Shown here piece by piece: positions 12,579 to 55,308 of a stretch of DNA of 64,000 nt. A program made the position numbers and the translations under genes. The stretch is taken from assembly GCA_045647355.1 (NCBI GenBank), contig JAZRMF010000005.1, forward strand, positions 101,763 to 165,762, read 5' to 3'. The stretch comes from Candidatus Enterousia sp. (GTDB lineage: Bacteria; Pseudomonadota; Alphaproteobacteria; Rs-D84). The first letter of the stretch is position 1. Every line of letters begins with the position of its first letter. The notes under the pieces are model-generated. The model saw only the letters and a list, made by a program, of their open reading frames with translations, searched no databases and was not told the DNA's origin.

Positions 12579-12608
12579 TTGACACATTACAGCGATTTTT
12601 GTTAGAAT
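12579..12608 (+). promoter_or_regulatory. sigma70-like promoter (TTGACA, 17-18 nt spacer, TAGAAT) for leader copy 1
   Basis: near-consensus -35/-10; equivalent TTGAAA-17-TAGAAT/TAAAAT promoters precede leader copies 2 and 3. Confidence 0.6.
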
Positions 12609-12629
12609 CGCAAATGAACCAAATGGGAA

Positions 12630-12830
12630 TTTGGTTCGGGGCTGTCGAAAGCCTAAGTTAGCCGGTGCAAAGCATCGTAATATGTTATTTTACATGATTT
12701 TGCACCGTCATATATTCCCCGCGTTTTATGGTCGGGGTGCCGTTGGTGTATATATAAAGGCCACGGAATCTAAGCTAACTTGATTTTCGAACACCCCGAC
12801 CGTCAATTTCCGTTGACGGTTTATTTATGA
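12630..12830 (+). ncRNA. conserved structured 5' leader, copy 1 (candidate riboswitch/attenuator with terminator-like expression platform)
   Basis: shares GGTTCGGGG...CCGGTGCRAAGCATCGTAAT...TTTGCACCGT...TATGGTCGGGGTGCCGTTGG...CCCCGACCG + hairpin + T-run with copies at 40108-40313 and 46371-46582; stem covariation between copies. Confidence 0.6.
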
Positions 12831-12853
12831 AAAATGAATAGGGGGAATTTTTT

Positions 12854-13861
12854 ATGAATAAAAAACTAACAATAGCATCAGTTATTGCGGCAATAGTTGT
12901 AATGCCAACATTTGCGGTTGATGACCCGGTATCGGGTGATAAGCGCACAACGTCACAACCGTATGTTTATAACCGGATACAAGAAGAAACGCAGATAAAA
13001 ATTCCTGCGGCGAACCCGTCAAATACTAACATTGGTAATACGGTAATAACATATACCAATGTAGAGGGTGGCGGTGTAATTGGTGAACGCGAACTGTTTA
13101 CGGGTGGCGAATATGATGCGGATAGCGATTCTGGTAAACTGATTACGGCATCTGCCTTAAATAGTGCGTTTACGAACCTGCCGACGACGGATACGACCAA
13201 ATTGGTATGTGCGAACCAAGCGGACGGTTGTACATTATGGACAATCACGGACCAAACGGCATATGGTGAAACGATAACATTGCCCGAGGGATATACACAC
13301 CTTGCGTATATCGAATCCACTGGCACACAGTATATTGATACGGGAAACAAATTAAATACAAATACGGATGATATCGAAATCATTTTTCAAGCTGTTTCTG
13401 ATAGAACCCCTGTGCCAAATATGAACTTGTTTGGTGCGCGTGGTTCGACAACGTCTATGGCTTATACTCTTGGGGTAAATAGTGGAGGATGGCGTTTTGG
13501 TTGGGGAAATAGTTCACCAAGCGTGGGAACAGCAGATACAAATAAACATGCCGCAAAGATAGAACATAATAATGGTGTATTAAAAATAGATGGTGTAGCA
13601 ATTGATACGCGGGGTAATGTGTCAATTATAACCCCAACTACAGCGACCTTATTCGGGGTTCATGCAACTAGTTCTACTACCATGTACTATGGGAATTATA
13701 AGATTTATTCGTATAAGAAATGGACAGATGGCGAACTTGTTCAGAATTTCATTCCTGTTAAAAATTCCAGCAATGAAATCGGTATGTATGATACCGTCAG
13801 TGAACAATTCTTTAGGAACCGGGGAAGCGGCACATTTACCGCCGGTCCTGTGGTACAATAG
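12854..13861 (+). CDS. secreted protein (signal peptide) with about 190-aa beta-rich module shared with giant surface protein
   Basis: signal peptide MNKKLTIASVIAAIVVMPTFA; module YIESTGTQYIDTG...KIYSYKKW...IPVK...GMYD...F.N.GSGTF also present near C-terminus of ORF 59959-63993. Confidence 0.6.
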   Translation: MNKKLTIASVIAAIVVMPTFAVDDPVSGDKRTTSQPYVYNRIQEETQIKIPAANPSNTNIGNTVITYTNVEGGGVIGERELFTGGEYDADSDSGKLITASALNSAFTNLPTTDTTKLVCANQADGCTLWTITDQTAYGETITLPEGYTHLAYIESTGTQYIDTGNKLNTNTDDIEIIFQAVSDRTPVPNMNLFGARGSTTSMAYTLGVNSGGWRFGWGNSSPSVGTADTNKHAAKIEHNNGVLKIDGVAIDTRGNVSIITPTTATLFGVHATSSTTMYYGNYKIYSYKKWTDGELVQNFIPVKNSSNEIGMYDTVSEQFFRNRGSGTFTAGPVVQ

Positions 13862-37696: not shown

Positions 37697-37793
37697 AAAA
37701 TGTTTATAAAGTCCTTGACTTATAGGGAGTTTAGGTATAATACAAGCGCTGTTATTCGGGCATAGTTCAGTCGGTAGAACAACGGACTGTTAA
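37697..37793 (+). repeat. direct repeat A: tRNA-Asn promoter + 5' 38 nt of tRNA-Asn (through anticodon loop), degenerate tRNA remnant
   Basis: identical to 50029-50066 then diverges after CTGTTAA; 3' acceptor-like GCCCGAGCA follows after 4 nt. Confidence 0.8.
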
Positions 37794-38110: not shown

Positions 38111-38557
38111 TTATAAATGTACGATTTCAATATCTGGGATTTGGCTTGCGATGTATTCAGCTGCTAGCCGTCTGTGACACATATCGGCTGTCTTTTCTGT
38201 GCAAAGTAAACATATCCTGTCTAGTTTATGAGTATCAAAATTTCGCAGCGGGTTGCGCGCGTTTAACAATTCGCGATATTTCTGCTCGAACTCTGCCCAA
38301 GCAAGTTTTTTATCTTTATAATCGGCCAAAAATTCTCCGCTTGGTGCAAATTCTGGATGGTATTCATAACGGCTACCAAGCACCAACGCCAAATTATCGC
38401 CATTATAATATGGCACATAAGTGCTCGTCCGCCAAAGCCGAATGTCCCACACACAACTTATGCGTGCCGCTGACAGCACTTCCAGAAAAACTTCTGGTTT
38501 TTTGCCACTAAAACCAATCGTAAATATCTTTGTCATATCAGTATAAAAATAGCCCAT
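38111..38557 (-). CDS. DUF488 family protein
   Basis: IFTIGFSGKKPEVFLEVLSAARISCVWDIR matches DUF488 N-terminal pattern. Confidence 0.5.
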   Translation of the reverse strand: MGYFYTDMTKIFTIGFSGKKPEVFLEVLSAARISCVWDIRLWRTSTYVPYYNGDNLALVLGSRYEYHPEFAPSGEFLADYKDKKLAWAEFEQKYRELLNARNPLRNFDTHKLDRICLLCTEKTADMCHRRLAAEYIASQIPDIEIVHL

Positions 38558-38620
38558 TCAATATCAAATAGCAATGACAAACTATTTATGATACAATTTT
38601 ATGAAAGGATTCTATTAAAC

Positions 38621-39568
38621 ATGAATATTTCAACAGATAAATTGTTACACAATATCGTGATTGATTCGCGACAACAATATGCATTGTACCTTAAAACTAG
38701 GCAAGGTGTGATCGAACAATATGGCGGCAAAAGGACCAGTGATTACACGAATTTTCGTATGGCATCTGTAACAAAACAATTTATATCATTTTGTATTTTA
38801 TTTCTTATACAATCTCGACATATCGGCATAAACACACGATTATCACAAATCTTTGACGACATACCAGAATACATGAAAAGCATCACTATTCGTCATTTAC
38901 TAACTCATACATCTGGCCTTATTGATTACGAAGACAGACCCAAAATCAGCCGCAAACAAATAACAGATAAAAAAGTATTTGAGTATCTAAAAACTTTAAA
39001 ACATGCATATTTTAAACCAGGCACAAAATACAGATACAGTAATAGCGGCTATATTATATTGGGACAAATTATAGAAAAAATATCCAAAAAGAAATTGCCG
39101 GTTTTTGTTCACAACACTATATTAGCTCCCGCGCGTATGCACAACTCTCTCATATACACCCAAGACGTTTCTGTGATAAAAAATCGTGCATATGGACATA
39201 AAATAGACAAAAACAATCGGATAATTATTTGTGATCAAGGTCCTAATACAGCAACCCAGGGCGATGGCGGTCTTTATTCTTCCATACATGATTTGAAAAA
39301 ATACCTATATTTTATTCAGCACAACCCATTGGCATCAAAAATGTTTGTACCGAATATATTACCAAACAGTAAAAACACAGGATACGGATTTGGTTTACGA
39401 ATAATAAAGCACAAGAATTACAAAATTATATACCATTGTGGTGGAACAATAGGAACAAACACTATTGTTGGTTTTATACCACGTTTAGACATTGAATTCG
39501 CATTTATGACATCACTCGACGGCATAGATACTGAAATATTTTTAAGAAATCTTTTGCATTGTTTCTAG
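38621..39568 (+). CDS. serine hydrolase, beta-lactamase/PBP transpeptidase-fold family
   Basis: S-x-x-K motif ASVTKQF, YSN-like YSNSGY; start at MNISTDK with RBS aaagga. Confidence 0.65.
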   Translation: MNISTDKLLHNIVIDSRQQYALYLKTRQGVIEQYGGKRTSDYTNFRMASVTKQFISFCILFLIQSRHIGINTRLSQIFDDIPEYMKSITIRHLLTHTSGLIDYEDRPKISRKQITDKKVFEYLKTLKHAYFKPGTKYRYSNSGYIILGQIIEKISKKKLPVFVHNTILAPARMHNSLIYTQDVSVIKNRAYGHKIDKNNRIIICDQGPNTATQGDGGLYSSIHDLKKYLYFIQHNPLASKMFVPNILPNSKNTGYGFGLRIIKHKNYKIIYHCGGTIGTNTIVGFIPRLDIEFAFMTSLDGIDTEIFLRNLLHCF

Positions 39569-39672: not shown

Positions 39673-39769
39673 AAAATGTTCAGAAAGTCCTTGACTTGTG
39701 CGGATTTTAGAGTTATTATATCGCCTGTTATTCGGGCATAGTTCAGTCGGTAGAACAACGGACTGTTAA
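39673..39769 (+). repeat. direct repeat B: tRNA-Asn promoter + 5' 38 nt of tRNA-Asn
   Basis: as repeat A; followed by 275-bp segment shared with repeat C flank. Confidence 0.8.
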
Positions 39770-40045: not shown

Positions 40046-40057
40046 GATTTTACACCA

Positions 40058-40086
40058 TTGAAATTTGATAAAAAGTATGTTAGAAT
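40058..40086 (+). promoter_or_regulatory. sigma70-like promoter TTGAAA-17-TAGAAT for leader copy 2
   Basis: conserved with copy 3 promoter. Confidence 0.55.
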
Positions 40087-40107
40087 TCCTAATGAATCCA
40101 AGAGATT

Positions 40108-40313
40108 GGGTTCGGGGCATGCTAAGCCCACTTCATTCGGTGCGAAAGCATCGTAATCTGATGTTATCGGTGTCTTTTGCACCGTTATCATCCCTGACTT
40201 ATGGTCGGGGGTTCGTTGGTGATACAACAGGGGTAACCCGAAAGCCACGAAATCAATAATGAAGTGATTTAGCAACTCCCCGACCGCCAATTTCCTTGGC
40301 GGTTCAATTTTTA
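40108..40313 (+). ncRNA. conserved structured 5' leader, copy 2
   Basis: see copy 1; terminator-like hairpin accgccaa-tttcc-ttggcggt + T-run immediately before RBS aggaga. Confidence 0.6.
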
Positions 40314-40327
40314 TAGGAGAGAATACC

Positions 40328-41272
40328 ATGAAAAGATGTTTAATTTTCGTATCAATATTAGCACTGGCAGCATGTACAACAGATAGTGGTGGTGGCAGCA
40401 GTGGCGGTTCGTATAATCATGGCATATCTGGAGGGTATAGCGGTACCACTACGAACAATAATACAAATGGTGGCAATAGCGGAGGTAATACTGGTGGTAA
40501 TACCAATAATCAACAAAACAATCAAGTGGTACATTATACAAACTTTAAACAATACTTTGATAATGTGTTACAACAAAATACAAATGGAGTGTATACAGAT
40601 TTTGTTGAAACTACACAAAGTTGGCCTTCCCAAGGAGGGTATAAACATTATGGATACAATGTAAACTCATCTACGGGTACACAACATAGCATATCGAAAT
40701 ATGTTGTTGAAGAAAAAGAAATGCAGCTCGCAAATTATGGTGTTCAAAATTATACTTATAAGCAGGATTTTGATAACGAATTCCATGATGCTAGCGAATA
40801 TTCTGCAACGGCATATGCACATAATCGTGAGGGTGTCGGGGCAAATTTATATACGCCACAAGAAAACACAGTTTTTAGTGGAGGAACGCTTGCTTATTTA
40901 GACACAAGCGGTCAACAAGCAGATATGTTCTTAAAAGGGAATGCCACATACACGTACAATTCAACCAACCCAGAATTGTTAATCGCATATGATAATTATT
41001 ATACATTCAATATAGTGAAAGGCGATGGTAACAGTGAAACCACGACTGTATCTGGTACAAATAATACAGGAAATGCTTATTACGATGTTACACCAGGAAC
41101 ATACACAGATAATTATGGGTATGATGCCACTTTCACACCAAATCACTTAAAAAAGGGGAATATAGAGGAAGCTGTTGGCACGTATCAACTAAATTTTGGT
41201 ACTGGGGATATTGGTGGTAACACAACAAACAATTTCTTTATACATGGTGCATTTGGTGGCGCAAAGCAGTAA
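40328..41272 (+). CDS. surface lipoprotein candidate (Gly/Ser/Asn-rich linker after lipobox Cys)
   Basis: lipobox LAAC then TTDSGGGSSGG; followed by TPR+barrel gene. Confidence 0.6.
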   Translation: MKRCLIFVSILALAACTTDSGGGSSGGSYNHGISGGYSGTTTNNNTNGGNSGGNTGGNTNNQQNNQVVHYTNFKQYFDNVLQQNTNGVYTDFVETTQSWPSQGGYKHYGYNVNSSTGTQHSISKYVVEEKEMQLANYGVQNYTYKQDFDNEFHDASEYSATAYAHNREGVGANLYTPQENTVFSGGTLAYLDTSGQQADMFLKGNATYTYNSTNPELLIAYDNYYTFNIVKGDGNSETTTVSGTNNTGNAYYDVTPGTYTDNYGYDATFTPNHLKKGNIEEAVGTYQLNFGTGDIGGNTTNNFFIHGAFGGAKQ

Positions 41273-41275
41273 ACA

Positions 41276-42640
41276 ATGCATAATAACATGCGTATTTTAG
41301 TTGGAATATGCACTGCGTTATTTATGTGGGTGTCTGCTGGATTCGCCGAACAAGTACAAACATTAGAACTAGATGATAAACAAGCGCTGGCATTGGCTAA
41401 CGATCTAGTAAATAAAGGCGATTTAAAGTCTGCTACAAATATTTTAGATGCTGTTATAAAAAGCGAGGATGAAAATGCACGTACAGTCGCATTATTTGAA
41501 ATGGGACGAGTGGCATTGGCTAGACACGATTATGCAACAGCAGAGCAAAATTTTCTGACCATATTGAATTGGTACCCAGAGGCAACATTTGTTCGTATGG
41601 AACTAGCCAAAACTTATTTTGCTGCTGGACAATACAGTAGCGCAGATTTTAATTTCCGTTTGGTACTGGCAGATAAGAGTTTATCTGACAATGAACAAAA
41701 ACTTGTACGGAACTATTTGAATTTAATTCGTAAACAAAGAAATTGGGATGTGTTTGCCAGTTTTTCTGTAGTTCCAGATTCAAACCTTAACTATGCCACA
41801 GGCAGAAGAGAAGAATGTATAAACACGATAGCAGGTACACTTTGTCGTGACTTAGAAGACAAATCGTCTGGGATTGGGTTGCAGTACAGTTTAGGTGGCG
41901 ATTATTACCTTAAATTGACCGACCATTTCGGTATAAAAACCAGTGCAGCTTTATATGCGTTGGATTTTCCAACATCAAAATTTGATGATTACATGTTTTA
42001 TGTGGCCGCAGGACCTCGTTACATAATAGATGGAATTGGCGAATTCAGTATCCAGCCATTTGCACAATTGCGCTGGTACGGCGACGAATATTATGACACT
42101 ATGCCAGGCATACGGGCTGATGCAGATTTTGATTTAACAAAGCGGTTGCATTTGTCTCTAGGGGGATCGTATAGCAGGGATATGTATCGTGACGATTCCT
42201 TGAATAGAATTTTGGGTGGCAACGAATATTCGATATACGTTCAGCCACGTTATTATATCAACAATAAAAGTTTCGTATTTGTAGGTACTGCTTATACGAA
42301 TGTCACAGCAAAACAAAAATCATACGGTAACCATGGGTTAAATTATTCCCTGGGATATTTCGCAGAATTGCCATTGACTTTGACTCTGCTTGCTAGGTTG
42401 GATCTGATACAAACAAGGTATAAAAAATCACAGTATTTTATAATGGAAGACAGTAACCTAGAATACTTCACAAGACGTGATACAACATACAGAACTTGTA
42501 TACGGCTATCAAGTCGTTATTTAGAATACAAGAGGCTTTATCCATCGATAAGCTATACTTACACCAGGCGCAACTCAAATGCTCCTATATACGAATTTGA
42601 CAAGCACAGATTTCAAATAGAGATGAACTACCGTTTTTAA
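41276..42640 (+). CDS. TPR + C-terminal beta-barrel outer-membrane protein, Slam/DUF560-like
   Basis: signal peptide, N-terminal TPR-like helices, C-terminal alternating beta pattern ending ...EMNYRF; about 70% identical paralog at 47313-48650. Confidence 0.5.
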   Translation: MHNNMRILVGICTALFMWVSAGFAEQVQTLELDDKQALALANDLVNKGDLKSATNILDAVIKSEDENARTVALFEMGRVALARHDYATAEQNFLTILNWYPEATFVRMELAKTYFAAGQYSSADFNFRLVLADKSLSDNEQKLVRNYLNLIRKQRNWDVFASFSVVPDSNLNYATGRREECINTIAGTLCRDLEDKSSGIGLQYSLGGDYYLKLTDHFGIKTSAALYALDFPTSKFDDYMFYVAAGPRYIIDGIGEFSIQPFAQLRWYGDEYYDTMPGIRADADFDLTKRLHLSLGGSYSRDMYRDDSLNRILGGNEYSIYVQPRYYINNKSFVFVGTAYTNVTAKQKSYGNHGLNYSLGYFAELPLTLTLLARLDLIQTRYKKSQYFIMEDSNLEYFTRRDTTYRTCIRLSSRYLEYKRLYPSISYTYTRRNSNAPIYEFDKHRFQIEMNYRF

Positions 42641-43559: not shown

Positions 43560-43886
43560 CATTGATTTCGACTGTGATTTTACTAAAAACGACACACAGA
43601 ATATTCTGTGTGTCCCTGTTAGCACTTTACACATGGTCACGCACAAAAAATACACAACAAACAACAAGTTATATTTTACAGGAATCAGGTGCTAATTTTC
43701 ACTTTTTGCTTTCGTGTACGTATATGTGAAAAAATCACACAAAATCACACGCAAGCCGCAGAAAACTGACCCCAAAATTTGTAGTATAAAATATTCAGAA
43801 AGTCCTTGACTTGTGCGGATTTTAGGTATAATATAGGGTCTGTTATTCGGGCATAGTTCAGTCGGTAGAACAACGGACTGTTAAAA
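43560..43886 (+). repeat. direct repeat C: about 330-bp tRNA-Asn upstream region + promoter + 5' 38 nt of tRNA
   Basis: about 90% identical to 49740-50066. Confidence 0.8.
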
Positions 43887-44520: not shown

Positions 44521-44703
44521 TATATGGATTATAAACTAAAACACAAATTAAAAACATGCCCAAAATACTGCAATAAAAAATGCTAGGTTTCTGGGTGTTT
44601 GCTGCTATTCTATGAACTTTTTATGAATAAATTAAAATGAATAAATAACTGGACTTTCGCCGAAAGATATTGATGAATACGACAACCTTAAAAAGGATTG
44701 TCG

Positions 44704-44910
44704 ATGAAGTATAAACATTTTCGGGAAATTGAGCCCAATAACAAGACAGATTTTATTATGCTCTACTTCGCAGCATGCCGATCGTTACACGAATTAGAGA
44801 ACGCTATACGCAGAACAAACAATGGTAATTTAACCTGCAAACAGACATGGCTGTTTCGCCGCTTGTACCGCAAACTATTCCAAATGGCAGCATCGTGGAA
44901 AACACAATAG
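44704..44910 (+). CDS. small conserved basic protein (paralog at 50439-50657)
   Basis: two copies about 80% identical, each with RBS; located at cassette edges. Confidence 0.5.
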   Translation: MKYKHFREIEPNNKTDFIMLYFAACRSLHELENAIRRTNNGNLTCKQTWLFRRLYRKLFQMAASWKTQ

Positions 44911-46089: not shown

Positions 46090-46327
46090 GTTATAATATA
46101 AAAAACAGGAGATTTTATGCAAAATTGTATTTCTTGCTCTTTCGCAAAGGTGAAAGTTGCACAGGATCTTAGATCTATTGCTAGTGGTATAGCATCAAAG
46201 GCGATAGAGGAGTTAAAGGCTACAAAACGTTCTACTAATAATAGAGATAAGAAAAAAATTTAATGTAAAAAAAACAACAAAGTTTTAAAGGTCGGTATTT
46301 CAATACCGACCTTTTTCAATAAGAAAA

Positions 46328-46356
46328 TTGAAATTTTATAAAAAGTATGTTAAAAT
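46328..46356 (+). promoter_or_regulatory. sigma70-like promoter TTGAAA-17-TAAAAT for leader copy 3
   Basis: conserved with copy 2. Confidence 0.55.
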
Positions 46357-46370
46357 TCCTCATGAATCCA

Positions 46371-46582
46371 AGAGATTGGGTTCGGGGTCTTTACAAACCC
46401 GCTTTATCCGGTGCGAAAGCATCGTAATCTGATGTTATCGGTGTCTTTTGCACCGTTATCATCCCTGACTTATGGTCGGGGTGCCGTTAGCGATAAAACA
46501 GGGGCAACCCGAAAGCGCGGGGTCAATGATAAAGCGACTGTAAACACTCCCGACCGCTCTTTCTTGGGCGGTTTTAATTTAT
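46371..46582 (+). ncRNA. conserved structured 5' leader, copy 3
   Basis: see copy 1. Confidence 0.6.
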
Positions 46583-46601
46583 TCAACAAAGGGGGCACCC
46601 C

Positions 46602-47309
46602 ATGAAACCATTTGTCGTTTTATTATCCATCTTGTCTTTAACTGCTTGCGGTGGTGGTAGTGGTGGTAGTTCCCCCTCTAATCCTGGTCCAGTTAACCCA
46701 GGCAACCCGAACGTTCCGGGTATAGATGATGAATTAACCGCAGCGGAACAATTGTTTGGTCAAGGTAATGGCACAGGTGCTACACCAACAGCATTGTTAG
46801 CAAGGACCGATAATTTAGGGTTTGATTATTTATCTTTTGGGGCTTGGGGTAATATTTATAATTTGAAGGAATCCGATACAACAAAATTACTTAAAATACT
46901 TGTTCCTGGCGAACCAACATACAATGCGTTTATTAGCGGTAACCATCTTGAATTTACGACCCAACAATTAGAAACAATGCAAAATTGGACGCATACAAAA
47001 GATAGTCGTGTAGCAGAAGCAACATATACGGGGCCAGCCATTATGTATTATATGCCATTTAATCCATCTGGTGCTGTGACAGAATCAGACCATGGAACAA
47101 TGCAACTCAGTTTTGGGCAAGATATAGCAAATTCTGTTTTGAATTTTGTTATGCATAATCCGTCAAACAACATATCTCTCAATTCTGCCGATGATGTTTA
47201 TAGCACAAATTTCTCTGAAGATATGAATAATGTGGTAGTTGTGTATGGTATGTGGGAAAATAATGCTCACAACCTTAGGGTTTATCATGGCTACGGGTCA
47301 AAACAATAA
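46602..47309 (+). CDS. surface lipoprotein candidate
   Basis: lipobox LTAC then GGGSGGSSPSNPG linker. Confidence 0.6.
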   Translation: MKPFVVLLSILSLTACGGGSGGSSPSNPGPVNPGNPNVPGIDDELTAAEQLFGQGNGTGATPTALLARTDNLGFDYLSFGAWGNIYNLKESDTTKLLKILVPGEPTYNAFISGNHLEFTTQQLETMQNWTHTKDSRVAEATYTGPAIMYYMPFNPSGAVTESDHGTMQLSFGQDIANSVLNFVMHNPSNNISLNSADDVYSTNFSEDMNNVVVVYGMWENNAHNLRVYHGYGSKQ

Positions 47310-47312
47310 CTC

Positions 47313-48650
47313 ATGAAAAAAACTTTTTGTGTTTTGTTATTTTTGATTCCCACACTTGTAGTTGCACAAACAACTGATGTCACATATAACGATTCCTTGG
47401 AGTTTGCAAAAAAGCAAATTGTTGGTGGAAATTATGCACAAGCAGAAAAAACTTTGCGAAATTTAAATGGCACCAAAAACACCCAAGAAGAAATAGAAAA
47501 ATGGTTTCTGCTTGGTCAAGTTTATATGGCACAAGGTGACTTTAATACTGCAATAAAGATTTACAGAAAAATCTTAGATAAACAACCCGACTTGTCCAGA
47601 GTCCGTTTAGAATTAGCAAGGGCATTGTTTTTTAATAAACAGTATCAAGAAGCAGAAAATAATTTTTTGTTTGTTCGAGCCGACCACAATACCCCAAATG
47701 AAGTTGTGCAAAAAATTAACTTATTTTTGACCGCTATCAGACAACAAAGAAACTGGTATGCTAATTTTTCGTTTGGTATTGTTCCTGATTCAAACCTTAA
47801 TTATGCCACTGGACGACGTGAAGAATGTATAAATACAATGTTTGGTATTTTGTGTCGTGAATTGGATGACAAATCATCTGGTGTTGGCCTTCAGTATGGA
47901 CTTGGTGGGGATTATTATATAAAAATGACAGATAATTTCGGCATCAAAACCAGTGCATCGTTATATGCCCTTGATTTTTCAAATTCCACATTTGATGATT
48001 ATATGCTGTATATGGCAGCAGGTCCTAGATATGTCCTGGGCGGTATTGGCGAAATCAGTGTTCAACCGTTCACTCAATTACGTTGGTACGGTGGAGAGTA
48101 TTATAATACTGTCCCCGGTGTGCGTGCAGACATAGATTTGGATTTATCAAAACGTATTCGATTATCATTTGGTGGTTCATATAGTAAAGATATGTACCAC
48201 GACGATGATTTAGACGATATTTTACGTGGGGACGAATACACAACCTATATTCAGCCTAGATATTACATAAACAACAAAAGTTTTACATTTGTCGGTTTGT
48301 CTTATACAACCAACACAGCAAAATTAAAATCATATGGCAGTAATAGTATGTATTATTCTATTGGTTATTTTGGTGAATTGCCTTGGACCCTATCATTGTA
48401 TGCCAGGTTAGATTTAACACAAACAAAATACAAAGATTCACAATTCTTTATAATGGATGATTACACAGTAAATAAATTTACACGACGTGACATCGGTTAT
48501 CGTGCATATTTACGTCTATCCAGTCGTTATTTGGAATACAAACGATTGTATCCTGCAATCAGTTACACATACACTAAACGTGATTCAAATGCTCCTGCGT
48601 ATGATTTTGATAAGCATAGATTTCAAATCGAAATGAATTATAGATTTTAG
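47313..48650 (+). CDS. TPR + beta-barrel outer-membrane protein, Slam/DUF560-like (paralog)
   Basis: see 41276-42640; ends ...EMNYRF. Confidence 0.5.
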   Translation: MKKTFCVLLFLIPTLVVAQTTDVTYNDSLEFAKKQIVGGNYAQAEKTLRNLNGTKNTQEEIEKWFLLGQVYMAQGDFNTAIKIYRKILDKQPDLSRVRLELARALFFNKQYQEAENNFLFVRADHNTPNEVVQKINLFLTAIRQQRNWYANFSFGIVPDSNLNYATGRREECINTMFGILCRELDDKSSGVGLQYGLGGDYYIKMTDNFGIKTSASLYALDFSNSTFDDYMLYMAAGPRYVLGGIGEISVQPFTQLRWYGGEYYNTVPGVRADIDLDLSKRIRLSFGGSYSKDMYHDDDLDDILRGDEYTTYIQPRYYINNKSFTFVGLSYTTNTAKLKSYGSNSMYYSIGYFGELPWTLSLYARLDLTQTKYKDSQFFIMDDYTVNKFTRRDIGYRAYLRLSSRYLEYKRLYPAISYTYTKRDSNAPAYDFDKHRFQIEMNYRF

Positions 48651-50028: not shown

Positions 50029-50104
50029 TCGGGCATAGTTCAGTCGGTAGAACAACGGACTGTTAATCCGTATGTCACTGGTTCGAGTCCAGTTGCCCGA
50101 GCCA
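50029..50104 (+). tRNA. tRNA-Asn (anticodon GTT)
   Basis: acceptor TCGGGCA/TGCCCGA + G + CCA, anticodon loop CTGTTAA, T-loop GGTTCGAGTCC; 76 nt. Confidence 0.9.
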
Positions 50105-50142: not shown

Positions 50143-50438
50143 TTTATTTTTGTCTATGGCAATTTGTTCTGGTATAAAATGCAAAAAAGTGTTAAAAATC
50201 GCAAATAATTATACCAGAGTTATACACGGCTTGTAGAAAAAACGCCTATAAAAACGATTGCAAAACCAGTATTTACAAGCCTCTCAGAAGATTATATGCC
50301 CCTGAGAACAACGGAACGAAGTCCGTATATCTGCTTGTATACAAAATGTATACATTTTTAATTATCAGATTTCCAAGAAACGACTGGACTTTTGTTAAAA
50401 GATAAGGACAAATACAACAACTTTTAAAGGGGTTGTAC

Positions 50439-50657
50439 ATGAAATACAAACATTTTCAAGAAATTGAGCCGAGCAATAAAACTGATTTTATTATGCTCTA
50501 CTTCGCGGCGTGTAGATCATTACGCGAATTGGAATCGAATGTACGATACAAACAAAACGGAAATCTAACCTGCAAACAGGCATGGCTATTCCGCCGTTTG
50601 TATCACAAATTATTTCAAATGGCTGCATTATGGAAAAACGACGATGATCGCCCATAA
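50439..50657 (+). CDS. small conserved basic protein (paralog of 44704-44910)
   Basis: RBS aaagggg; about 80% identity to other copy. Confidence 0.5.
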   Translation: MKYKHFQEIEPSNKTDFIMLYFAACRSLRELESNVRYKQNGNLTCKQAWLFRRLYHKLFQMAALWKNDDDRP

Positions 50658-50678: not shown

Positions 50679-52133
50679 CTATTTTAGAGATGTGAGATCT
50701 AATTTTTTCAATAGCTCCCCTTCATCTTGTAACATAAATTCTATCAATGGGCTAAGATTTGCAACAAATGTGTCACAATCCGAAGGCGTTGCGCTAACCT
50801 TGTCGTTATGAATAATTTGCTGAATGTTATCAATATTAAAAGAAGAAAAAGCTCTCTTCATACTCAACTCTGAAATTAGTTTTGTAAACAATTCGGACAA
50901 TACGGCAAAATCCGTAAAAGGCTTTTTGGTCCCTTTCTTTGTTCTAAAAGCATCATTAAAATATTCATAACTAGACAATTTCTTATCTTGGTATTTTGTG
51001 TTGTCTAAAACCCATTTCAAAGTACATTCAAACACTATTCTTATCATAGCCATCTTCGCATTAGGAACCTGCTGACTATTGAGTTTCATGAACAATTCAT
51101 CTATTTTGTATTCAAGAGATTTAGAACGATTTTTTCTTGTCAAAACCGGTTTTTTTTGAACAGAACCTCGTAAACTTTTGTTTTTTGGGCTATCTACACC
51201 TTTTTCAGGTGCCGCGACAACATCTGGCAAAACACCATCGTACTTTTTTTCATTCCCCATACTCAAATTTGATTCATTTTTAGAATTGAAACTCAACCCC
51301 AATTCCGGCTGAGAACTACCTGTTTCTGTTATTTCTATTTTACGCAGAAAATCTTGCTGTTGTTCCGGCTTATCTACATCATAATATGATGCGTCTGGAT
51401 TTTTTTGTAAATATTCAACTACATTATTGATATATTTTTTAAACAACTTATTATCAGTTATTATCAATTTATATTTTTCGTTTTTACCCCCGAAATCGTA
51501 TCCACAAATTTTTCTGGACCGAAACAATCTCTCTAAGAAAGCTAATTTTCCACCTTTCTTTCCAGAGCTTCTAACCAATTCCTTAAAATTTTCTCCGCCA
51601 TGTTTTACAGCCTCATAGTAAAAATTTGCGATTTTCATAAAATCTCCGACATTAGAATCAATCGCCTGAATATCATCACTCGATGCTCCCGCAATAAACA
51701 ATCGGTGTATTTCTAAAGCTTTTGCTATACGACTCCATGCCCTAAACGATGGAGTCGCATGTTTTTCCCTTATTCTTTTTTCCAACAAACGTTCATCGTC
51801 ATAAATTATAGCAGGTAACTCTTGTATGTCAAACTTATCAACATTTAATCCAAAAACATCTGGATTTGATAACGCAACTACGGCCGCAGCTCGCCTATTT
51901 CCTTCTTTTACAAGATACGAACCATCATGTTGTTTTACCACCCACAAAGCTTCGTCAGGATAATATTCGTGTTTATCTAGTATATTATCAACTATTTCAT
52001 GTGCATTTTCTTCATTAAGTAAATATAAAATAATTTCTTTTTGTGTGGTACCAGAATATAGGTCCGCAAATCTAGGATTGTGCGAATCCAATACCAAATT
52101 CTCTCTTTTTACATACTCTATTTTATGCTTCAT
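50679..52133 (-). CDS. ParB/Srx-fold N-terminal domain protein (defence-island associated)
   Basis: ParB-N-like LVLDSHNPRF...VKEGNRRAAAV; long uncharacterised C-terminus. Confidence 0.5.
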   Translation of the reverse strand: MKHKIEYVKRENLVLDSHNPRFADLYSGTTQKEIILYLLNEENAHEIVDNILDKHEYYPDEALWVVKQHDGSYLVKEGNRRAAAVVALSNPDVFGLNVDKFDIQELPAIIYDDERLLEKRIREKHATPSFRAWSRIAKALEIHRLFIAGASSDDIQAIDSNVGDFMKIANFYYEAVKHGGENFKELVRSSGKKGGKLAFLERLFRSRKICGYDFGGKNEKYKLIITDNKLFKKYINNVVEYLQKNPDASYYDVDKPEQQQDFLRKIEITETGSSQPELGLSFNSKNESNLSMGNEKKYDGVLPDVVAAPEKGVDSPKNKSLRGSVQKKPVLTRKNRSKSLEYKIDELFMKLNSQQVPNAKMAMIRIVFECTLKWVLDNTKYQDKKLSSYEYFNDAFRTKKGTKKPFTDFAVLSELFTKLISELSMKRAFSSFNIDNIQQIIHNDKVSATPSDCDTFVANLSPLIEFMLQDEGELLKKLDLTSLK

Positions 52134-52202
52134 TATAAACCGCCTTTATCTAACAGATAATACTTGATAACCTGTGCCATTTTAACGAACTTTTTTTATT
52201 TT

Positions 52203-53096
52203 TCAACATATTAAGTCAGTATCAGGTATATTAAGAATTTTGTCTGAAAAGAACAATATTTCTTTTCCTCGTTTTCCTGTGGCTCTTAAACAATACTGTA
52301 AATCAAATTCTTGTTTGGCTTCATCATCTACCCAATCATATAAATTCCGAATCTCTTGCACATTATCATAACTAAGAATCCATTTACATTTAAGTTTTCT
52401 TATTGCTTCAGAAATGTCCTTATGGTCTTTTGGTTTATACCAATTCTGATATAGTTGTGGGCCTTTCTTAAAGTAGGGAGGGTCTAAATAAAGTAAGCAA
52501 TTTCCTCTTAATACCTTTAACATCGATCTATCAGTTAACAACTTTAATGCATCTACGGAGGAAATATGTATTTTATCCTTGAATTCAGATATTCTTCTTA
52601 TTTTATTTATTAACTCATTTTTGTTAAACCGACAATCTATTTTATATTTCCCCATCTGCGATTTTCCACCTATAACCCCCCCCTTCAATATACCGGAATG
52701 GTTACATCTATTTAAATAAAAAGCGGCAAAGCCCAAATCAAATTTTTGTTTATCGGATTCGTGCAAATTTGCCTTATATATTTTTGTTTGTTTTTCCCAT
52801 TCTTCTATGGTCACTTCTATTCTTTTTATTTTGCCAATAAATTTATTTGTATTATTCACAATATTGTACCAGAAACAATATATTGAAGGATCCGCATCAT
52901 TTATATATATCTCTGAAACATACCCTTCTATTAACAAACCCAATGCAACAGCTCCCCCGCCTGCATAAAGCTCCACATAACAAGGTTTGACATTGTCAGG
53001 AAAATTAGATTTTATGGTTTCTTTCATAAAATCTAATATTCTTGCTTTTCCACCAGGATATCGTAAAGGCGAATTATTTTTTGACATCTTTTGCAA
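52203..53096 (-). CDS. Dam-family (D12 class) N6-adenine DNA methyltransferase
   Basis: LRYPGGK motif, ELYAGGGAV, catalytic DPPY. Confidence 0.75.
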   Translation of the reverse strand: MQKMSKNNSPLRYPGGKARILDFMKETIKSNFPDNVKPCYVELYAGGGAVALGLLIEGYVSEIYINDADPSIYCFWYNIVNNTNKFIGKIKRIEVTIEEWEKQTKIYKANLHESDKQKFDLGFAAFYLNRCNHSGILKGGVIGGKSQMGKYKIDCRFNKNELINKIRRISEFKDKIHISSVDALKLLTDRSMLKVLRGNCLLYLDPPYFKKGPQLYQNWYKPKDHKDISEAIRKLKCKWILSYDNVQEIRNLYDWVDDEAKQEFDLQYCLRATGKRGKEILFFSDKILNIPDTDLIC

Positions 53097-53156
53097 AAAA
53101 CCTTCTAATTTTATATTTAGAATAATACAACATAAAACGCTTCACAAAAACAAACC

Positions 53157-53876
53157 TTATTTTTTATATTTAATATATCCAGCAACCTTTTCTATAAAAC
53201 TTTCAAAATTATTGATTACAACCCCAGATTGAAAACGGTCTTTAAATTCGTCATCAAGGCCAAGATCCTTATCTCTAAAAAATTCGTTATATTCAGCTTT
53301 ATTGTTAATATTATTATCTGCAATAGACTCCGATAATGTTACTACATAAATCAACGTCTGGGTCGGTGTGTGAAGAAGCAGTTCTATATTATCTTCTGAT
53401 AATTTAATATACTTACGCAAATTATGTTCGTTAATGTGTTCTACTCTAATGATCTTGTTATTCTTATTATAATAAGGTAATTCTTTTAACAAAACCAAAA
53501 CCTGAAAATAAGGAATATTGTTACATCTTATATTAGCGGTCTCCCCCAACATATTTTCAAAATAATTATTAGAATTTTGTTGATAATTACTCATAACAAA
53601 TTTGAAGCCTATCGCCGCTAAAACAACGTTACCTTTGCATACCGCAATATCCACATTCTTGTCCATGTATCTACCAGCAATTGACATTTCGCCACCACGT
53701 TGTCCCGGTCTCAAAGAACAAAAAGTCAACTCAGGATCGTTCAATTTCGTTTTTAAAGAATCCGATATAAAAGAATGTATCGGTTTTAACTTTTCATTGC
53801 TGCGCGAACCGGTACTTAAATATAAACGAAAAGATTCTTTCACCTTATCCAAAAAGGCGCAATTGACGTTTGGCAT
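53157..53876 (-). CDS. putative type II restriction endonuclease
   Basis: sandwiched between two MTase genes with 32-nt overlap; PD-(D/E)xK-like DIAVCK / IGFKF segments; weak. Confidence 0.4.
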   Translation of the reverse strand: MPNVNCAFLDKVKESFRLYLSTGSRSNEKLKPIHSFISDSLKTKLNDPELTFCSLRPGQRGGEMSIAGRYMDKNVDIAVCKGNVVLAAIGFKFVMSNYQQNSNNYFENMLGETANIRCNNIPYFQVLVLLKELPYYNKNNKIIRVEHINEHNLRKYIKLSEDNIELLLHTPTQTLIYVVTLSESIADNNINNKAEYNEFFRDKDLGLDDEFKDRFQSGVVINNFESFIEKVAGYIKYKK

Positions 53877-55308
53877 CTTGTGTATCTCCTTTTAACATAT
53901 AGGTCAAATACTTTTCCAATTCTAGCGAAGAAAATGTAAAGTATCCACCACTTTTATATTTCTTTAATGCTTTTACATATTTTATAAATTTAGGGTCATA
54001 AATAACACGCTTTATATCATCAAAACTATAATCTGACAATATGTATAAACCACTATACACACCAGAACCAGCAGGAACATTTATTAGTTTTATACTGCTT
54101 TCATCTTTAATTAACGTGTTAATAGATACTTTATTTTTGAAAACATCTTTGATTCCTTGGCTTCTTCCAAACAAATACCAATGCCCAGCAAAATCAATAG
54201 CTCGTTTTTCTAATTTATCTTTAAACGATTGCAAATGTGTGTATGCGGACATAAAATTTTGCTTTATAAAAGATTCTTCCATAGGCACACCAGGAAAAAC
54301 ATATGGGAACAAGCATTTTGTCCATTTGCCGGTAGAAGCTTTTACAACATCAATATATATGTTCTCTGATGATTTAAAATCTTGAATAAAACACGTATCT
54401 GCCAATGTAGCAAAACCATTCTTTACAACTATGCTACGTTTTACCTGATCTTTGTAAAAAGAATCTATGTCCGATAATAACTTTAACGTGTCTTCATCAT
54501 CAAAGGACATTGTGCCATGCTTAAAAACAGTATCATACGGCAAATTAAAACTATCCTTTGTACTATGTTCTACATACTGGATCTCATCGTGTGTTATCCC
54601 GTTGTCAAACAAAGTAATAGCTGTATATGCCGATATACCATCAAACACTTGTTCTTGACCTAAATCAACAACCATTGATAATTTTTTGTTTTTATTTATA
54701 CATGCTCGGCAATTTTTACCAGACTTACTAGTCATAAATGAACTGGGGGTAATCAAACACATTTTTCCGCTTTTATTGAGCTGCTTTAATCCAAGTTCAA
54801 TAAAAACTAAATACAAGTCGATCATACCATCTTGTGCAAATGAGAATTTTTTTGCCAAATCATAATTTTCCAAATTGTGAACTCTAACGTAAGGCGGATT
54901 TCCAACAACAAAATCCATTTTATGATCGTACTTACTTACAATTAAAGCATCTTCATTCACAATATCCCATGCTACATTTTGTATACCATATTGAAGAACA
55001 ATGGTATCCAAACGTTTTATACATTTTGTGTATTCATTTTTATCTAATTCAATACCATGAATGTATGTTTCTAAATCGTGTTTCAAACGGCTTATATCAT
55101 TATTTGCAATAGAAACGAAAGCATCACAATATCTGTGAACGATTTCGGACAAAAACGCGCCATCGCCACAACTGTTTTCCATTATATGTTTTGATAAGAT
55201 ATCTTTGCCACTGAATGCCAAATAATCCAGCATTTCCTGCACGATGCTGAACGGGGTATAAACGCCTCCCATATTCTTTACCCTATGTTGCTTGGCTATT
55301 ACTTCCAT
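53845..55308 (-). CDS. N6-adenine DNA methyltransferase (gamma-class, Eco57I/HsdM-like)
   Basis: GGVYTP motif, SAM-binding ENSCGDGAFL, catalytic NPPY. Confidence 0.75.
   Translation of the reverse strand: MEVIAKQHRVKNMGGVYTPFSIVQEMLDYLAFSGKDILSKHIMENSCGDGAFLSEIVHRYCDAFVSIANNDISRLKHDLETYIHGIELDKNEYTKCIKRLDTIVLQYGIQNVAWDIVNEDALIVSKYDHKMDFVVGNPPYVRVHNLENYDLAKKFSFAQDGMIDLYLVFIELGLKQLNKSGKMCLITPSSFMTSKSGKNCRACINKNKKLSMVVDLGQEQVFDGISAYTAITLFDNGITHDEIQYVEHSTKDSFNLPYDTVFKHGTMSFDDEDTLKLLSDIDSFYKDQVKRSIVVKNGFATLADTCFIQDFKSSENIYIDVVKASTGKWTKCLFPYVFPGVPMEESFIKQNFMSAYTHLQSFKDKLEKRAIDFAGHWYLFGRSQGIKDVFKNKVSINTLIKDESSIKLINVPAGSGVYSGLYILSDYSFDDIKRVIYDPKFIKYVKALKKYKSGGYFTFSSLELEKYLTYMLKGDTQDAKRQLRLFG

Follow-up and report, generated by a model that had tools for sequence, protein, structure and literature searches.

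A likely type 11 secretion (Slam) operon behind a structured leader RNA in a tRNA-Asn island of Candidatus Enterousia sp.

Introduction

Two consecutive modules beside a tRNA-Asn gene of Candidatus Enterousia sp. (Alphaproteobacteria; Rs-D84) raise the question of what they encode, how their protein-coding parts came to differ and what their shared upstream region does. Each module consists of a promoter-like site, a leader, a gene for a putative surface lipoprotein (SLP) and a gene for an outer-membrane protein that resembles the Slam proteins of type 11 secretion systems (T11SS). We analysed a stretch of 64,000 nucleotides (GenBank assembly GCA_045647355.1, contig JAZRMF010000005.1, positions 101,763 to 165,762, forward strand), hereafter the window, with emphasis on the second module (module 2, encoding SLP2 and Slam2) and its paralogue (module 1, encoding SLP1 and Slam1). 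Slams are present in all clades of Proteobacteria (PMC5449769), and the pathway from Sec export and lipidation to the outer membrane and on to Slam is established for the Slam systems of Neisseria (PMC5449769, PMC12282271). Cargo proteins of T11SS have a variable N-terminal part and an 8-stranded C-terminal barrel, and cluster 1 T11SS co-occur with mobile islands (PMC12282271).

In our judgement, the region is likely to be a T11SS (Slam) operon in mosaic tRNA islands, placed behind a default-off attenuator leader. The protein pair itself is an ordinary member of the Slam family; what is new are the cargo families and the host lineage. Variable cargo with a common C-terminal barrel and an association with islands has already been described (PMC12282271). 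The main interest of the region lies in the RNA leader more than in the Slam operon.

Results

Slam proteins and their cargo

Slam2 matched the SlipAM profile (PF04575) over its full length (residues 148-445 against positions 1-288 of 288; E = 1e-33; 117.6 bits, cut-off 22), and Slam1 matched the whole profile as well (E = 1.3e-33). The Slam-like assignment made in the initial annotation held for both proteins, neither of which turned out to belong to an unrelated outer-membrane protein family. Slam2 exceeded the cut-off for TPR_Slam (PF24575; 52.3 bits, cut-off 35.2) and matched several generic TPR families; Slam1 scored 24.7 bits, under that cut-off, and passed TPR_19. A cleavable Sec signal peptide (MKKTFCVLLFLIPTLVVA, followed by QTTD) was read by eye from the Slam2 sequence. 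Judged by these matches, both barrel proteins are Slam/T11SS outer-membrane proteins, and the SLP2-Slam2 pair carries, at the level of sequence, testable defining features of such systems: a DUF560 barrel, a TPR domain, a signal peptide and an adjacent cargo gene. The slam2 gene starts 3 nt after the lipoprotein stop codon. The two genes form an operon in which, by analogy with characterised systems, Slam2 would probably place the lipoprotein on the cell surface.

The N-terminus of SLP2, as read from the sequence, is MKPFVVLLSILSLTAC followed by GGGSGGSS, with a lipobox (LTAC) and a Gly/Ser linker. A flexible tether was also apparent, with GGGSGGSSPSNPGP coming after LTAC and residues 1-42 having a predicted local distance difference test score (pLDDT) below 50 in an AlphaFold2 model. 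This model, built on the family alignment, had a pLDDT of 80.9, with residues 43-235 mostly above 90, and was all-beta, with approximately six strands followed by eight strands in residues 141-234. The model of SLP1 (314 aa) was also all-beta (pLDDT 78.8, folded part mostly above 90). Foldseek searches against the PDB gave no match at E <= 0.001 for either protein. The best-ranked matches of SLP2 were TbpB (E = 0.016, probability 0.93) and the C-domain of NHBA (probability 0.75), and those of SLP1 were NHBA and fHbp (probability 0.98, target TM-scores 0.52-0.54). All of these are classic Slam cargo barrels, and the matches, weak and non-significant, are suggestive at the level of predicted folds.

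Both cargo families are small. In 5.8 billion clusters, SLP2 had 16 homologues; SLP1 had 27. When the SLP2 family profile was run against 1.84 billion cluster representatives, only 19 related ones were retrieved and no known cargo family was reached. The C-terminus reads G-x-G-x-KQ or G-x-F-G-G-S-H in both families and all relatives, with G-x-G-x-KQ in SLP1 and SLP2 themselves. The terminal KQ would resemble the C-termini of TbpB and fHbp; a 35-residue C-terminal peptide of the cargo had no match in the PDB.

Slam2 and Slam1 shared 58% identity (255/443 residues; BLASTP, E = 0.0), unevenly distributed between the barrel (72%) and the N-terminal TPR part (25%). The identity of about 70% given in the initial annotation applies to the barrel, not to the whole protein or its TPR part. 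The TPR domain thus diverges, in sequence, together with the cargo, and the two may be co-adapted. SLP2 and SLP1 could be aligned by BLASTP over just 16 residues of the signal peptide, and in hhalign the family profiles matched in signal peptide and linker but nowhere else; with the folded parts alone, the hhalign probability was <1%. The two lipoproteins had been described as unrelated apart from their tether. This stood for sequence but not for fold and terminus, as the G-x-G-x-KQ end and a predicted all-beta architecture of a handle plus about 8 strands are common to both.

Structure and copies of the leader RNA

Each module has its own promoter-like site followed by a structured RNA of approximately 210-240 nt. 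The claim that module 2 has a leader copy of its own was borne out: positions 46327-46573 were 85% identical to 40057-40304 over 250 nt (E = 4e-72), and the cores 91-95%. The equivalent promoter site of module 1 lies at 40058-40086, and the -10 box was kept across 51 aligned leader copies. The minimum free energy (MFE) of the module 2 leader was -97.2 kcal/mol (z = -5.7).

Copies were collected by nhmmer with a profile made from ten of them. Approximately 55 were found, three in the window (at 12604, 40081 and 46351) and the others in related loci, denoted here by L numbers, and in rumen and gut metagenome contigs. An open reading frame (ORF) on the same strand followed 41 of the 42 copies whose flanking DNA was long enough to tell, most commonly some 19 nt past the terminator. 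The genes after the leader encode lipoproteins, signal-peptide proteins, proteins without a signal peptide and, in one case (L083:309-569), a GmrSD type IV restriction enzyme (GmrSD_N, 1.7e-37; GmrSD_C, 7e-25) located directly behind the leader. The leader is thus not specific to surface proteins. Nor does it always abut the cargo gene, since a 72-aa ORF (L001:5769-5987) lies between leader and lipoprotein in L001. On the minus strand of an IMG/VR contig classed as viral (L144, 13214-13462), a copy precedes a 228-aa lipoprotein. The product downstream of the most diverged copy in the window (12854-13861; 335 aa) has a Sec signal peptide, is not a lipoprotein, has no adjacent Slam and matched no family; its C-terminal 57 residues were 39% identical to a stretch at 61195-61365 on the minus strand.

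The structure was supported by covariation. RNAalifold predicted 52 pairs from the 51-sequence alignment, 28 of them with compensatory changes. In the structure that we specified for the same sequences, 96.2% of the pair cells were paired and 29 pairs showed double changes; none of 500 shuffles reached the observed value, and controls in which the structure was slid along the alignment gave 32-46%. The G-U pairs assign the structure to the transcribed strand. A 7-bp long-range helix, formed by a linker of the 5' domain and the loop region of the last hairpin, varied in sequence in almost every copy and was nearly always compensated, with 21-28 double changes at each of the five main pairs. A terminator scan found 8 pairs in the terminator hairpin, 4 of which covary (for example, GC in 37 copies and AU in 14).

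Three segments of the leader can pair in two mutually exclusive ways. The pairing of CCCUGAC with GGUCGGGG was kept in 98.6% of cells, and that of GGUCGGGG with CCCCGACC, the outer stem of an sRNA-Xcc1-like fold, in 97.8%. Module 2 reads UCCCGACC where most copies have CCCCGACC, resulting in one G-U pair. The alternative pairing of GGUCGGGG with CCCGACC overlaps the 5' arm of the terminator by GACC. One copy, L040, had matching changes in all three competing segments. The terminated fold was the unconstrained MFE structure in 31 of 51 copies and, in the median, 9.6 kcal/mol more stable than the alternative fold, which was scored without its pseudoknot.

At permissive thresholds, Rfam searches returned no riboswitch or leader family and only a sub-threshold similarity to sRNA-Xcc1 (RF02221). 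The full model (1-87) was matched with 23.3 bits at 46474-46563, 38.2 bits at 40203-40293 in module 1 and 39-49 bits in other copies; none reached the gathering score of 53 bits. Besides the outer stem, the sRNA-Xcc1-like domain contains a first inner hairpin, in which 6/6 pairs covary, and a second one with 90% of cells paired. Attenuation by a leader peptide was considered and rejected, since the copies do not share the 5' ATG and differ in frame through indels in the loops. Neither Rfam 15 nor the literature searched contained a description of this leader, which has probably not been described as an attenuator before.

Cargo exchange among related loci

In all 11 related loci with upstream DNA, a lipoprotein gene preceded slam with a gap of 0-6 nt, and the lipoproteins belonged to different families, a point that the initial annotation had proposed to check in homologous genomes. 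In L011, one Slam was preceded by two lipoproteins. The closest Slam loci were found in metagenome-assembled genomes (MAGs) of Candidatus Enterousia, of Alphaproteobacteria and of rumen 'RUG' bins.

The idea of a conserved translocon with changing cargo agreed with two comparisons: L001 with module 2 (Slam 90%, lipoprotein 50% identity) and L008/L009 with module 1 (75% and 45%). Past residue 60, the L001 Slam was 96-100% identical to Slam2, and the DNA was 93.5% identical from window position 47439 to the end, whereas the C-terminal two-thirds of the lipoprotein were merely 23-56% identical to SLP2. A near-identical slam after approximately 47439 next to a lipoprotein of 50% identity places a recombination breakpoint within the 5' end of the slam gene. 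On this sequence evidence, the cargo gene and the 5' end of slam are exchanged by recombination and the barrel is retained. In L004 and L005, cargo of the SLP2 type (50% and 49% identity) was paired with much more diverged Slams (49% and 36%), the divergence of which equals or exceeds that of the cargo. The overall pattern is one of mosaic recombination, not of uniformly faster cargo evolution.

An allele from another sample (L166) encodes a protein identical to SLP2, with 1 synonymous change in 708 nt, and lies in a cassette of the same type but behind another neighbouring gene. Close alleles in general are nearly the same, and distant ones are saturated with changes. Its leader has about 15 real differences against this one in the coding sequence; the leader identity of 87% is partly an artefact of masked runs of N and was discarded. 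After the tether, some members of both cargo families contain the motif SAYELWLAQGHTGTEQDFLDWL (L006:5023-5997, L007:4988-5998, L011:4016-5995; P0015, P0016), which suggests that N-terminal modules have been shuffled between otherwise unrelated cargo. The motif resembles one of phage tail fibres.

Genomic context

The intact tRNA-Asn gene and three truncated copies of it bound a series of cassettes (Table 1), in agreement with the earlier view that the modules sit in successive cassettes at this tRNA: module 1 between truncated copies 2 and 3, and module 2 between copy 3 and the intact gene. The cassettes have related ends (95% identity on the left and 92% on the right), and the GC content of the island is 35%, compared with 40% in the flanks. 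No integrase was found within window positions 26-64 kb. In relatives, the module adjoins tRNA-Val, tRNA-Arg or tRNA-Gly, with a P4-type integrase in two of them (L004, L010). In these Enterousia-like contigs (L004:1682-8130, and L010), leader, lipoprotein and Slam are the last cargo of an element with a P4-type integrase, an AlpA-like small protein and AAA_25, and the element ends approximately 175 nt before tRNA-Val. Islands at tRNA genes usually leave 3' fragments downstream. The polarity of the fragments in the window, which are 5' halves with a promoter upstream of the intact gene, is unusual. The modules are carried by AT-rich islands at tRNA genes, and their host is a low-GC gut or rumen alphaproteobacterium that probably has a reduced genome.

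Right of the tRNA-Asn gene, the minus strand (50679-55308) encodes a PD-Lambda-5_A-like protein (E = 9e-22), a D12-class adenine methylase and an Eco57I-type methylase, so that the tRNA locus combines defence-type genes with surface-protein cassettes. A 263-nt segment occurs twice in the window with 76% identity, inside the module 2 cassette (44640-44902) and just right of the intact tRNA-Asn gene (50375-50637), and again in a related contig (L166:7389-7556). It contains a small ORF of 70-74 aa starting with MSMKYKHFREIEPNNKTDF, which had no match in PHROGs or PADLOC.

Table 1. Positions of the two modules, their parts and the surrounding cassettes in the window.
Feature	Position	Strand	Description
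Promoter-like site, module 2	46328-46356	+	TTGAAA, 17 nt, TG-TAAAAT; consensus scan 10/12, extended -10 TG
Structured leader RNA (5' untranslated region), module 2	46364-46601	+	Several hairpins, long-range helix, terminator; ends at ribosome-binding site
sRNA-Xcc1-like 3' domain	46474-46563	+	Outer stem GGUCGGGG / CCCGACC around two hairpins; proposed antiterminator fold
Intrinsic terminator	46552-46583	+	GACCGCUC-UUUCUU-GGGCGGUU (hairpin 46552-46573) and U-rich tail, ~20 nt before start codon
Cargo lipoprotein SLP2	46602-47309	+	235 aa; lipobox LTAC, disordered Gly/Ser/Pro tether to ~residue 42, predicted all-beta domain, end HGYGSKQ
Slam2, putative Slam / type 11 secretion outer-membrane protein	47313-48650	+	445 aa; signal peptide, TPR domain, DUF560 barrel
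Module 1 (paralogue)	40058-42640	+	Promoter, leader 40094-40327, SLP1 40328-41272, Slam1 41276-42640
Third, more diverged leader copy	12604-12853	+	nhmmer E = 9.5e-50; before non-Slam signal-peptide protein 12854-13861
Intact tRNA-Asn (GTT)	50029-50104	+	ARAGORN and Rfam tRNA, 74 bits; right boundary of array
Truncated tRNA-Asn	43847-43884	+	Promoter and 5' half to anticodon loop; alignment, repeat families; left boundary of module 2 cassette
Sister truncated tRNA-Asn copies	~37756-37793, ~39732-39769		Promoter and 5' half; alignment
Leftmost cassette	38111-39568		DUF488 (minus strand) and beta-lactamase-fold protein (PF00144, 5e-40)
Second cassette			Module 1 and 272-aa ORF
Third cassette			Module 2 and three functionally unassigned ORFs, one similar to a PHROG of unknown function and one with a weak hit to a HEPN model

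Discussion

Proposed secretion pathway and control

By analogy with known Slam systems, SLP2 would leave the cytoplasm through Sec, receive its lipid at Cys16, travel to the outer membrane by way of Lol and reach the cell surface through the action of Slam2, with its TPR domain and DUF560 barrel. Recognition would probably occur via the C-terminal beta domain of the cargo, the last strand of which ends in G-x-G-x-KQ. The analysis shows that the protein belongs to the Slam family, how the operon is arranged, that the cargo is divergent and mosaic, that the RNA structure is conserved and that the leader is linked in cis to the genes behind it; surface translocation, recognition signal and switch are what we propose on top of this.

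From the competing pairings, we infer that the leader is a default-off transcription attenuator in which the sRNA-Xcc1-like fold may serve as the antiterminator. In the off state, CCCUGAC would pair with GGUCGGGG, and the long-range helix and the terminator would form just before the ribosome-binding site. In the on state, GGUCGGGG would pair with CCCGACC (CCCCGACC in most copies), the sRNA-Xcc1-like fold would form and the terminator would lose its 5' arm. The 5' domain would either hold the off state or sense an input. More tentatively, the leader could represent a new class of cis-regulatory RNA, made up of a portable promoter, a sensor of approximately 210 nt and a terminator, that keeps horizontally acquired cassettes off until a signal stabilises the antiterminator; these cassettes would include Slam operons with surface lipoproteins, genes for other secreted proteins and defence genes such as GmrSD, in gut alphaproteobacteria with reduced genomes. 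We consider this possible.

Several observations weigh against the interpretation as a Slam operon under attenuator control. Covariation cannot discriminate between the competing helices, as both hardly vary, and the energy of the on state was computed without its pseudoknot. An exact 16-mer of one hairpin served to retrieve most of the leader copies, so that the invariance of that hairpin is partly forced; it was also kept in 9 of 10 copies obtained without the 16-mer, and the long-range helix was compensated among eight distinct copies obtained without this probe as well. On the protein side, SLP1 and SLP2 had no match in Pfam (including TbpBBD and lipoprotein C), NCBIfam, PHROG or PDB sequences, whether searched as single sequences or as family profiles. 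The module 2 cassette contains no TonB-dependent receptor or other partner gene, and nothing in it points to binding of iron, haem or complement by the cargo.

The element could instead be a stand-alone gene for a trans-acting small RNA of the sRNA-Xcc1 type, with the downstream operon expressed independently. Rfam classes RF02221 as a small-RNA gene and the 3' domain of the leader matches its full model; in addition, the element comes with its own promoter-like site and terminator, and since the terminated fold is the thermodynamic default, an RNA of about 210 nt would accumulate. We nevertheless regard this as unlikely. Random orientation would place an ORF on the same strand in about half of the copies, in contrast to the 41 of 42 observed, which start mostly some 19 nt past the terminator behind a purine-rich ribosome-binding site, and a separate promoter would not fit between terminator and ribosome-binding site. 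Moreover, sRNA-Xcc1 itself is located directly upstream of a gene, namely symE in Xanthomonas cassettes and an ORF6N-domain gene in APSE phage (bioRxiv 10.1101/2025.06.18.660453; 10.1101/2020.03.17.996009), a position compatible with a role in cis. Cis and trans roles of the leader are not mutually exclusive.

Two further alternatives concern the proteins. The difference in cargo might reflect the acquisition of separate ancient families followed by neutral drift, rather than diversifying selection on surface antigens, which we consider somewhat unlikely. Both families are indeed old, with members 30-50% identical across MAGs, the Slams of L004 and L005 are as diverged as their cargo or more so, and the allele from another sample differs from SLP2 by its single synonymous change. 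The sharp mosaic boundary in L001, with a near-identical Slam beside cargo of 50% identity, and the shuffling of SAYELWLAQGHTGTEQDFLDWL between the two families indicate active module exchange instead, which is no proof of selection. It is very unlikely, in our view, that the upstream lipoprotein is not the cargo of Slam at all but a periplasm-facing accessory or unrelated protein, Slam exporting something encoded elsewhere. The lack of a TbpBBD or lipoprotein C match and the statistically non-significant structural matches would fit such a protein, yet the order of lipoprotein and Slam recurred with its short gap in every informative locus despite the different lipoprotein families, and the C-terminal motif and predicted all-beta C-terminal domain are common to both families. 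Adjacency of Slam and cargo is also the rule in characterised systems (PMC5449769, PMC12282271).

Comparison with known systems

As a putative Slam operon, module 2 resembles the known systems (Neisseria Slam1 with TbpB, LbpB and fHbp; Neisseria Slam2 with HpuA; Pasteurella PM1515 with PmSLP; Xenorhabdus NilB with NilC) in the signal peptide, TPR domain and DUF560 barrel, in the directly adjacent cargo gene, and in the lipobox and flexible tether; the body of the cargo is predicted to be all-beta as in those systems, closing with some 8 C-terminal strands. The presence of several paralogous modules per genome is likewise shared, as is the association with mobile islands (PMC12282271). The window differs in that its cargo families are very rare and match none of the TbpBBD, lipoprotein C, Pfam or PDB sequences, that no TonB receptor, haem or metal genes lie near the modules, that the host is an uncultured low-GC gut or rumen alphaproteobacterium, and that a conserved structured leader, complete with terminator, precedes each operon.

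Like islands and tandem arrays formed by tRNA-targeting P4-type integrases, the array is AT-rich, tRNA-adjacent and bounded by repeated tRNA fragments, and relatives carry the same module at the end of such an element next to tRNA-Val. Unlike them, it has the 5' half and promoter upstream of the intact gene, and no integrase in the 26-64 kb part of the window.

The leader shares with sRNA-Xcc1, known from Xanthomonas integron cassettes, Xylella islands and APSE phage, the outer stem and two hairpins followed by a C-rich, U-rich tail, and, like it, is found on mobile, accessory DNA immediately before an accessory gene. It differs by a conserved 5' domain of approximately 130 nt, which comprises three or four hairpins, a segment in competition for the outer stem and a linker complementary to the second hairpin's loop, by a full intrinsic terminator overlapping the outer stem, and by scores of 23-49 bits, below 53; the known RNA has been described as trans-acting. 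With riboswitch and attenuator platforms, the leader has in common three overlapping complementary segments, a terminator just before the ribosome-binding site, a conserved structured upstream domain and a terminated default. In contrast to these, it has no match to Rfam riboswitch or leader families, no conserved leader peptide and heterogeneous downstream genes (surface proteins, lipoproteins, GmrSD), a heterogeneity that argues against a metabolite of a single pathway as the input.

Implications

The two cargo families extend the Slam family by cargo without sequence relatives among the characterised ones, and L001 is a specific example in which cargo has been exchanged while the translocon was retained. 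Members of Enterousia (order Rs-D84) are reported to have genomes of <1 Mb and to lack standard transporters (PMC12306168), and surface lipoproteins may be central to the interaction of such reduced, uncultured gut and rumen cells with a host or partner. With the leader, a family of dozens of copies gains an RNA structure that is well supported, and surface-protein and defence cassettes would come under one control element. The leader also offers a testable cis-regulatory account of sRNA-Xcc1-like RNAs on mobile elements: if the leader does represent a new class of cis-acting RNA, the sRNA-Xcc1 family, long known from integron cassettes, islands and phages but unexplained, would not be a small RNA acting in trans but would form the core of an antitermination element that is widespread and works in cis.

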